Shown: positions 26,345-27,377, counted from the stretch's first letter. The stretch: 64,000 nt of DNA from an uncultured Candidatus Binatia bacterium (GCA_958296235.1 OY282457.1:635769-699768), one strand, 5' to 3'. Program-made: numbers and translations. Notes: generated by a model not told the origin, from the letters alone.

Positions 26345-26526
26345 ACGTCATCGAGCCCGGCCTGTCGACCACCGTCCAGGACCTCGGGCGGCTGCACTGG
26401 TACCACATCGGCATGCCGCCGGCACAAACAGCGGGGGGCGAATCACAACCACTGGGGAGCAGACAGGAGCAAGGCTGTGAGTTGGAGGCGCACAGAGAGA
26501 GTAACCACAACTCCCAGCCGGATTGA
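26338..26526 (+). pseudogene. Orphaned 5' fragment of pxpC (first 28 codons intact, then unrelated sequence)
   Basis: MLNVIEPGLSTTVQDLGRLHWYHIGMPP is identical to the start of the intact pxpC at 27389. It diverges at 26421. Confidence 0.6.
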
Positions 26527-26752
26527 GGTGAACATCCGGGCCATTCCACGCCTTTCCCCTGACGGCTGGAAGCTTCACTCGCTTACAGAGAAGATCCCAA
26601 TCTCACTCGTTGGCGCCGTTCCGAAAAACTATTTGTCCTATGGCGACCCCCGCTCTCCTGCAGTCGTTGGCTACATTGCAAAAAAGGGCCGACAGCAAGC
26701 CGCCGCGCGCGAATGTGTGACCGAGGAGATCATTAAAATCATTTTGAGTTGA
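26477..26752 (+). CDS. Hypothetical ORF A of inserted cassette
   Basis: 91-aa ORF. Its stop overlaps the start of ORF B. No recognisable domain. Confidence 0.2.
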   Translation: MSWRRTERVTTTPSRIEVNIRAIPRLSPDGWKLHSLTEKIPISLVGAVPKNYLSYGDPRSPAVVGYIAKKGRQQAAARECVTEEIIKIILS

Positions 26753-26949
26753 TCGCCTGGATCATGGAGAACCATCCGAATACGCTTGGGAAACCAATTC
26801 GTAAGCTCTTTAGAGCGATTCACCTTCCATCCATTGAGCGCATGCTCCAGCAGCGGTTTCGTAGGGTTGTCACACCGCTCCGAATTCGGTGTATTATGGA
26901 ACTCCTGACCTTTCGGATTAAACATCTTCAACGAGAGGTTCTGCTATGA
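26749..26949 (+). CDS. Hypothetical ORF B of inserted cassette (weak HTH-like LGKPIRKLFRAIHLPSIERML segment)
   Basis: TTG 26749 or ATG 26764. Stop TGA overlaps the ATG of the HipS-like ORF (ATGA). Confidence 0.25.
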   Translation: MIAWIMENHPNTLGKPIRKLFRAIHLPSIERMLQQRFRRVVTPLRIRCIMELLTFRIKHLQREVLL

Positions 26950-27377
26950 TGGAAAAGATGGAAAAACTTGCTGAGCTGCTACGGAATCAGAGGCGATCTT
27001 GGGGCATCCACATTTTCCGGGCCGGTCGGGAAACTTCTCCTGAGCAGTACCTGGAGATATATAGAGAGACGCCGGGTGGACGCTCTCTGGTAGGCAGCCT
27101 TTCCCAGGAGGAGGAGAAATTTGTGTTTCGTTATGATCCAGACTACCGAGCGGAGCCTATCTCCGCCTTTCCTGATCTCGCCAAGGAGTACCGCTCCGAG
27201 GAATTGTGGCCTTTCTTCTCGGTCCGAATTCCGCCGATTGAGCGGGAAGATATGCGCGAGGCAATAGCAGCCCGCAACATCAAATCCGACCAACCCATTG
27301 AGCTATTGGGGAAGGTAGCAAAATTTTCCGTCACCAACCCGTACGAATTTCAACTCAACAACGACAACGACGCCTGA
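26946..27377 (+). CDS. HipA N-terminal-domain-only protein (HipS-like), no kinase domain
   Basis: Matches HipA N-subdomain blocks: LVGSLSQ (RVGEL), FVFRYDPDY (FKYAPEW), PISAFPDL (PLSLSLPL), FFSVRIPPIEREDMREAIA (FFDNLLPEGPIRETLA), LLGKVAKFSVTNPYEF (LLQAVGRECAGAL). Ends 3 nt before the pxpC ATG. Confidence 0.5.
   Translation: MMEKMEKLAELLRNQRRSWGIHIFRAGRETSPEQYLEIYRETPGGRSLVGSLSQEEEKFVFRYDPDYRAEPISAFPDLAKEYRSEELWPFFSVRIPPIEREDMREAIAARNIKSDQPIELLGKVAKFSVTNPYEFQLNNDNDA

Follow-up and report, generated by a model that had tools for sequence, protein, structure and literature searches.

A probable remnant of a two-gene Hip-type toxin–antitoxin cassette at the pxpB/pxpC junction of an uncultured Candidatus Binatia bacterium

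In the HipBST modules, HipS occupies the position that N-subdomain 1 has in HipA and wedges Trp65 beside the Gly-rich loop (PMC10627512). The short Hip kinases of clade XI also lack N-subdomain 1 and have putative antitoxins encoded downstream: in hipIN (14 modules) the downstream protein HipN combines a HipS-like part with a HIRAN domain, and in hipJS, a bioinformatic description of 2 of 1,239 modules, HipS alone is found downstream (Gerdes, Baerentsen & Brodersen 2021, mBio, PMC8262856). Here, a locus of this kind is described in a 64,000-nucleotide (nt) stretch from an uncultured Candidatus Binatia bacterium (GCA_958296235.1 OY282457.1:635769-699768), hereafter the window, in which a HipS-like gene and two short open reading frames (ORFs) lie between pxpB and pxpC. 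It is probable that this locus is a decayed two-gene Hip-type toxin–antitoxin (TA) cassette, which entered at the pxpB/pxpC junction and whose toxin was lost afterwards, while the structural and evolutionary part of this reading, taken by itself, is very probable indeed.

In its organization, by gene order and domain content, the cassette matches hipJS. Both are bicistronic with the kinase first, the kinases are short core kinases that lack N-subdomain 1 and have their Gly-rich loop close to the N-terminus, and in both a HipS-only gene without HIRAN lies downstream and HipB is absent. The core kinase is complete in the relatives L068 and L001, but not in the window, where codons 87-268 are deleted and the locus is a remnant. 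The kinase of the cassette is also longer, with 334-339 amino acids (aa) versus the 279-321 aa quoted for the short families, the HipS has an extra N-terminal segment of ~45 aa, and the kinase of the window is a pseudogene. As in the HipBST modules of E. coli O127:H6 (7AB3), H. influenzae (HI_0666, 7CZO) and L. pneumophila, HipS is a standalone homologue of N-subdomain 1, but its gene follows the kinase instead of preceding it, there is no HipB, the protein has 143 aa rather than ~103 aa, and its partner kinase is CtkA-like rather than HipT-like. The order of kinase and then HipS-like gene is shared with the PADLOC candidate PDC-M03 / hipIN. The kinase matches PDC-M03A over nearly its full length (1e-31, 78-333 of 334), and the HipS matches PDC-M03B over profile positions 21-105 of 245 only (3e-14). 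PDC-M03B and HipN, at ~250 aa, carry a further domain at the C-terminus (for HipN, HIRAN according to PMC8262856) that is absent here; full-length membership of PDC-M03 was rejected because the B component is matched only over its N-terminal part.

The kinase pseudogene and the HipS-like gene

On the + strand of the locus, three ORFs lie head to tail (26477-26752, 26749-26949 and 26946-27377), and the upstream two overlap stop-to-start. The first-pass annotation of the window, made from its sequence alone, had taken the first two as unassigned genes of a cassette devoid of a kinase. The ORFs and their overlap are as it described, and no functional kinase adjoins the HipS-like gene, but the two ORFs are fragments of one gene and a kinase is present as a pseudogene. 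In tblastn searches the first ORF (ORF A) is 88% identical to residues 1-89 of the L001 kinase, and the second (ORF B) is 86% identical to residues 266-334 in another frame. The metagenome contig L001 has, in the same chromosomal place, an intact 334-aa gene with the Pfam domain HipA_C between pxpB and the HipS-like gene P0002, and L068, which shares 97-98% identity with the window across 8.5 kb, has an intact 339-aa HipA_C kinase there. The window differs from L068 by exactly 547 nt: positions 4259-4805 of L068 are missing, with the junction at 26734|26735 according to the blastn breakpoints.

The 5' fragment of the kinase (26477..26734, +, codons 1-86) is delimited by tblastn, by positions 2-84 of the family hidden Markov model (HMM) and by its contiguity with L068 up to position 4258. 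It begins with GTG, keeps the putative Gly-rich loop VGAVPK, and continues out of frame after 26734 to the stop at 26752. The 3' fragment (26735..26949, +, codons ~269-339 and the stop; tblastn, blastn and HMM positions 267-334), in which ORF B starts at a TTG at 26749, lies in the +1 frame relative to the 5' fragment. The deletion takes out codons 87-268 and shifts the frame, and the deleted part holds the invariant D197-R198-H199-x-x-N202 and D223-T-A-R-G227 of the kinase family. From what is known of HipA, we take DRHxxN to be the catalytic loop and DTARG the Mg-binding motif. Going by these alignments, ORF A and ORF B are the two ends of one HipA_C-family kinase gene that is now a pseudogene, and the deletion has reduced the cassette to an orphan HipS gene, itself still intact, preceded by two short ORFs. 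No Pfam support was found for ORF A, ORF B or the antisense ORFs, which were rejected as independent genes; A and B are recognized as kinase fragments by tblastn. A weak helix-turn-helix (HTH)-like stretch reported earlier in ORF B turned out to be the conserved C-terminal helix region of the kinase. The heptamer ATCATTT was discarded as microhomology at the deletion junction, given that the breakpoints based on L068 fall outside it.

The kinase remnants compared with L001 have a ratio of non-synonymous to synonymous substitution rates (dN/dS) of 0.16-0.20, like a working gene and the flanking housekeeping genes. The HipS of the window belongs to a cluster at 90% identity with six members, and the kinase cluster that corresponds to it includes four intact proteins of 339 aa, from the same contigs or similar ones; the remaining HipS members come from genomes or contigs that hold an intact kinase. 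Since strain-level relatives still carry the kinase and the dN/dS of the remnants is still like that of a working gene, the deletion is, as judged from these comparisons, a very recent, strain-level event, and the survival of HipS in this genome is uninformative.

The intact HipS-like gene (26946..27377, +) encodes a product of 143 aa that had been assigned to the N-subdomain of HipA by eye, and profile, fold and homologue searches bear this assignment out. The product matches PF13657 (Couple_hipA) over residues 47-124 with 30.1 bits against a gathering threshold of 22.5 (E 7e-7); this is the only Pfam domain found, with neither a fused kinase domain nor HIRAN. The score against NCBIfam TIGR03071 (26 bits) is slightly under the cut-off of 27.8. 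A profile of the family matches the solved HipS chains 7czo_A (HI_0666) and 7ab3_B (E. coli O127) with E ~3e-6, and the AlphaFold model, with a predicted local distance difference test (pLDDT) of 70.8, has as its sole significant fold match in the PDB (E<1e-3) the HipS of E. coli HipBST (7ab3_E; template modelling (TM) score 0.77 on the target, E 3.6e-4). Homologues form 78 protein clusters, nearly all of 130-170 aa and four of them shorter (85-118 aa), and 19 residues are invariant in an alignment of 33 of the homologues, with motifs such as FVFRY, PISAFP, LWPFF and RIPP. Given these homologous clusters and invariant residues, this is no chance ORF: the gene is real and conserved. Ahead of the Couple_hipA domain, the family has a specific N-terminal extension of ~45 aa with a predicted helix and a conserved WG.

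The ATG of the HipS-like gene overlaps the kinase stop as ATGA, and the same overlap is found in L068. The gene ends 2 nt ahead of an in-frame ATG at 27380 and 11 nt ahead of the ancestral pxpC ATG at 27389. The HipS of the window differs from that of L068 by a single amino acid, S51 versus R51, at a position where Arg is mostly conserved. An exact-sequence look-up of the HipS of the window gave no match, and the genomic context was taken from the homologue P0002, which is 83% identical. A consensus scan for sigma-70 promoters gave three sites versus 0.8 expected. One match, GTCACA-17-TATTAT (26869..26897, +), lies inside the 3' kinase remnant ~50 nt 5' of the HipS start and may, on weak support, serve HipS as an internal promoter; since a conserved coding motif overlaps the match, its conservation is uninformative on promoter function.

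The intact kinase of the relatives scores 39 bits against Pfam HipA_C, with the domain starting from residue 43, and the invariant family motifs GxxPK, DRHxxN and DTARG are present in relatives such as L068 and L001. Its closest solved relative by both profile and fold is CtkA of H. pylori (JHP0940; PDB 3AKJ/3AKK/3AKL), which is likewise a short HipA-like kinase without N-subdomain 1 and differs in having been deposited in the PDB as a 'proinflammatory kinase'. The family profile reaches CtkA at 1.4e-9, and HipT and HipA are not reached by sequence; a single-sequence search against the PDB gave only spurious exonuclease matches, CtkA being found by the profile. The kinase model (pLDDT 85.7) has CtkA as its best fold match (TM score 0.78), followed by HipT of Legionella and HipA of E. 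coli. We know of no HipS-like partner of CtkA.

By analogy with HipBST, the HipS-like protein is likely to be a trans-acting inhibitor of a kinase that lacks N-subdomain 1. The intact cassette, as found in L068 and L001, encodes a HipA_C-family Ser/Thr kinase of 334-339 aa, without N-subdomain 1 and closest to CtkA, translationally coupled to a HipS-like protein of 140-143 aa. The latter would dock where N-subdomain 1 sits in HipA and hold the kinase inactive; kinase left free would arrest growth by phosphorylating an essential target.

Insertion between pxpB and pxpC

An exact 83-nt direct repeat (26338-26420 and 27389-27471) brackets 968 nt in which the GC content is 0.48-0.56, versus 0.62-0.70 outside. 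Neither the repeat nor the drop in GC had been part of the first-pass annotation. The empty-site relatives L071-L074 (~88% nucleotide identity) have the order LLM-pxpA-pxpB-pxpC, with pxpB overlapping pxpC and no cassette between them. The alignment of the window with L071 runs up to 26420 and resumes at 27389, using positions 3001-3083 of L071 twice, and L071 and L072 carry the 83-nt sequence once. Given the exact repeat, the GC drop and the empty sites, region 26421-27388 is, from this comparison of sequences, a ~1-kb low-GC cassette inserted at the pxpB/pxpC junction with an 83-nt target duplication. The duplication preserves both the pxpB stop and a complete pxpC.

On the left side, pxpB (25412..26344, +; 5-oxoprolinase subunit B, Pfam CT_C_D 4e-41, in synteny with L001, L068 and L071) ends within the sequence ATGCTGA, with which the left repeat copy (26338..26420, +) begins. 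This copy corresponds to duplicated pxpC codons 1-28, with 83/83 identity to the right copy, and is separated from the kinase GTG by a leader of 56 nt (26421..26476, +) that begins where the L071 alignment ends and is not homologous to the leaders found in other cassette copies. On the right side, an 11-nt spacer (GCATGTTACGT, 27378..27388, +), found at the same junction in L001 and L068, creates the extra in-frame ATG at 27380 ahead of pxpC. The right repeat copy (27389..27471, +), where the empty-site alignment resumes, is the true 5' end of pxpC (27389..28393, +; 5-oxoprolinase subunit C, Pfam CT_A_B 5e-85), which was left intact by the duplication; pxpC orthologues with 88-91% identity start at the ATG at 27389.

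The duplicated first 28 codons of pxpC and the leader together form a 62-aa fusion ORF (26338-26526, +) that is coupled to the pxpB stop, overlaps the kinase GTG, and is called as a gene in L068. In the equivalent ORF of L001 (L001:4848-4988), a 1-nt deletion makes it end in a GTGA overlap with the kinase GTG. Judging from this layout, the fusion ORF may drive the translation of a promoterless cassette, and, given that the leader has only 56 nt, cassette expression may depend on the host operon. Between L068 and L008, where the cassette occupies different sites, homology sets in at the kinase start codon and ends 6 nt beyond the HipS stop; because it is confined to the two ORFs, these alone make up the transferable unit.

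L001, with the cassette, and L071, without it, are ~99% identical in most flanking windows and 90-97% identical in pxpB and the first part of pxpC, where the lower-identity stretches of L001 carry patches of window-like sites. This pattern of sites points to a presence/absence polymorphism of the cassette that homologous recombination in the flanks has spread; alternatively, L071 lost the cassette by precise excision between the repeats. The repeat copies are identical (83/83) in the window and L068 and ~86% identical with an indel in L001; gene conversion, or selection acting on the left copy, could account for this.

Direct repeats of host sequence also flank Hip cassettes in three unrelated genomes: L039 (399 nt, 95%; L039:2587-2984/4835-5229), L024 (305 nt, 86%, within an S24-peptidase gene; L024:3884-4187/6465-6769) and L019 (186 nt, 96%, spanning 3.5 kb; L019:3715-3900/7193-7378). 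The L039 repeat includes the 3' end of a gene that, read by eye, is presumably wzc-like. Such repeats are not a general rule, being found at blastn sensitivity only in the lineage of the window, L068 and L001 and in L019, L024 and L039, with none at most loci. Campbell-type integration of a circle bearing host sequence, or the fill-in of widely staggered breaks, are possibilities for their origin, which bears on how small cassettes enter genomes. An element of the site-specific integrase type was rejected, given that the insert holds two Hip genes only and no recombinase, and that homology between sites is limited to the two ORFs. Essentially no matches to the cassette were found in viral contigs as a sign of phage or viral origin, and no tRNA or Rfam features were found in the window. 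It seems unlikely that the cassette is a promoterless mobile two-ORF unit that inserts in host genes or operons by duplicating 80-400 nt of the target, keeps the host gene whole while gaining a translated 'launch pad', and whose HipS, after loss of the kinase, is selected as immunity against related kinases.

Directly 5' of the cassette in the Binatia genome of L008, a 71-codon ORF fragment (L008:4775-4987) looked to us like the N-terminus of HsdM, a subunit of type I restriction enzymes, a resemblance for which Pfam gave no support.

Kinase loss across the family and rival explanations

A HipS-anchored scan in which a single genome stood for each species found 60 loci, the great majority in uncultured genomes, in Binatia, Latescibacterota, Gemmatimonadota, Alpha- and Gammaproteobacteria, Paracoccaceae, Myxococcota, Planctomycetota and Bacteroidota. 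A close subfamily contributes 28 loci with a full-length HipS and enough upstream sequence; some are close relatives, and these are thus not 28 independent observations. In this subset the kinase directly 5' of HipS is intact in 16 loci, C-terminally truncated in one and disrupted in 11. The disruptions differ in their breakpoints: they are internal deletions in the window and L011, 5' deletions that leave the last 10-110 codons in seven loci (L009, L012, L017, L023, L027, L028 and L029), an in-frame stop in L031 and a 1.75-kb insertion in L032. The last (L032:3674-5428, with the same event in L085) contains a 481-aa ORF with a weak, sub-threshold match to DDE_Tnp_1 and is, from this match, probably an insertion sequence element. 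Fully decayed HipS copies also exist (L035, L036 and L120).

From the side of the kinase, a metagenome sample anchored on it shows a HipS-like ORF directly 3' wherever the contig leaves 300 nt or more for it (42 of 42 loci), and an intact kinase lacking HipS was not encountered in this sample. The family has at least 210 kinase clusters next to the 78 HipS clusters. Loss of the toxin first is a general expectation for TA loci, and the window shares with type II TA loci that have orphan antitoxins an inactivated toxin gene and an intact antitoxin ORF, with nothing unusual in this respect. Obligate pairing, coupling and toxin-first decay are what a TA pair predicts, and are no proof of toxicity. 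The locus is an ordinary case of toxin-first decay in a family that has been described and is much larger, and the apparent oddity of a HipS without a kinase is resolved as a probable TA cassette just after the loss of its toxin. The kinase-then-HipS organization, of which the literature had two examples, is that of a sizeable family found almost wholly in uncultured genomes. The intact cassette in L068, the deleted one in the window and the empty site in L071 make up a natural matched set for the inhibition of a CtkA-like kinase by HipS; of secondary interest are that the partner kinase is CtkA-like, that HipS is extended at its N-terminus, that the kinase is often lost and that the target duplications are long.

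Members of the close HipS/kinase subfamily (50-70% identity) come from phyla as different as Binatia, Latescibacterota, Gemmatimonadota, Alpha- and Gammaproteobacteria (loci L008-L067), nearly all in metagenome-assembled genomes, and several of the isolate names among these loci look sponge-derived to us. This distribution suggests horizontal spread within a shared habitat.

Several points weigh against reading the locus as a TA cassette that lost its toxin. The 547-nt deletion is seen in one assembly only, which makes an assembly error a formal possibility, and the search for other kinases covered only 64 kb of the genome. The kinase is closer to CtkA than to HipT or HipA, and CtkA is not known to us as a TA toxin. 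By-eye alignment gives no obvious Trp as counterpart of the Trp65 wedge, which is essential in E. coli HipS, with invariant LWPFF, R94, PP and R100/D102 found instead; the position equivalent to Trp65 falls in IPPxxR in an extension made by eye, given that the HMM alignment stops before residue 65, and the details of inhibition may thus differ from those in HipBST. No experiment is reported on any hipJS-type module (PMC8262856 Table 1), and a literature search found no later experimental work on hipIN or hipJS modules. For this reason, kinase toxicity and neutralization by HipS rest on analogy.

An assembly artefact, with an intact cassette really present in this genome or with the 83-nt repeat as the error, would account for close strains all having an intact kinase while the deletion is confined to this assembly. 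It is nonetheless very improbable, given that independent assemblies (L068, L001-L007) show the repeat and both junctions as well, that the breakpoints are clean within sequence otherwise 97-98% identical, and that the same kinase gene has undergone independent internal deletions in other lineages (L011, L029 and L087). A degraded tripartite hipBST (HipB-HipS-HipT) had been among the possibilities raised at first. Degradation there is, through the kinase deletion, and the HipS-like protein does match the HipS of HipBST in sequence and fold; but every intact relative has the kinase and then HipS with a stop/start overlap and no HTH gene, the upstream gene being pxpB or unrelated, the kinase profile reaches by sequence only CtkA and neither HipT nor HipA, and homology between sites begins at the kinase start codon. 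Kinase-first gene order and the lack of HipB refute hipBST for the family and leave it next to no probability at this locus.

The orphan HipS might instead be kept by selection for a job of its own, neutralizing a paralogous kinase elsewhere or protecting against incoming hipJS cassettes or phage kinases. An intact full-length HipS persists after kinase loss in 11 of the 28 loci, in two of them with only 10-15 kinase codons left, the recurrent kinase deletions spare the start region of HipS, and the orphan copies L027 and L028 have a pairwise dN/dS of 0.20. However, retention of HipS is partly built into a HipS-anchored sample, and the nearest relative of L027, L026, still has its kinase intact, so that the low dN/dS of the orphans largely reflects time spent with the kinase; with losses that are recent or independent, dN/dS is uninformative as a test of selection on orphan HipS. 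Moreover, the loss in the window is recent at the strain level and the sole amino-acid change in its HipS falls at a mostly conserved Arg, fully decayed HipS copies are known, and the 64-kb window holds no other kinase of the same family and no further cassette copies. A maintained function is improbable on this balance, and neither a kinase encoded elsewhere nor a different use of the domain, both considered in the first-pass annotation, is needed to explain a locus whose strain-level relatives carry the kinase; the orphan HipS would more simply be a leftover than a protein with a new job. Distinctly more plausible than these three, though still doubtful, is that the cassette primarily serves anti-phage abortive infection in the manner of PDC-M03/hipIN, with HipS as a phage-sensitive inhibitor, a mechanism that overlaps with that of a TA pair. 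Both proteins match PDC-M03 (for B, over the N-terminal 100 residues), and phage defence has been proposed for the related hipIN and hipL systems (PMC8262856). Some cassette copies lie near other TA- or defence-like genes, as in L024, where the cassette is beside the S24 peptidase gene. A gene pair in L024 that we read by eye as presumably higBA points the same way. On the other hand, PDC-M03 is only a candidate, the C-terminal half of PDC-M03B is absent here, and the copy in the window lies inside a metabolic operon and not in a defence island; the near-absence of the cassette from viral contigs counts neither for nor against. A decayed TA cassette thus remains the preferred reading of the locus.

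Further observations in the window and its relatives

A gene for a PIN-domain toxin (Pfam PIN 2.6e-14) and an 88-aa partner lie 3' of pxpC in the sister lineage (L001:7471-8111, L071:4231-4676 and L072:4062-4328). L001 has the complete PIN gene, only 60 aa of it are called in L071, and L072-L074 have lost it through a deletion (~349 nt), while the 88-aa gene stays; this pair represents the same toxin-first decay as the Hip cassette.

Two tandem repeats were observed elsewhere in the window. A heptamer repeat of CCCACTA, with 9.7 copies and also scored as a 28-nt period, occupies the intergenic-looking positions 22117-22190. A 204-nt repeat with 6.8 copies and 88% matches (30086-31493) lies inside a minus-strand gene (29014-32928) and encodes 68-aa modules in a 1304-aa protein that, according to the L068 gene call, has Sel1, two FGE-sulfatase and TonB_C domains; the staggered blast matches of this array against L068 are most simply explained by self-similarity of the array.

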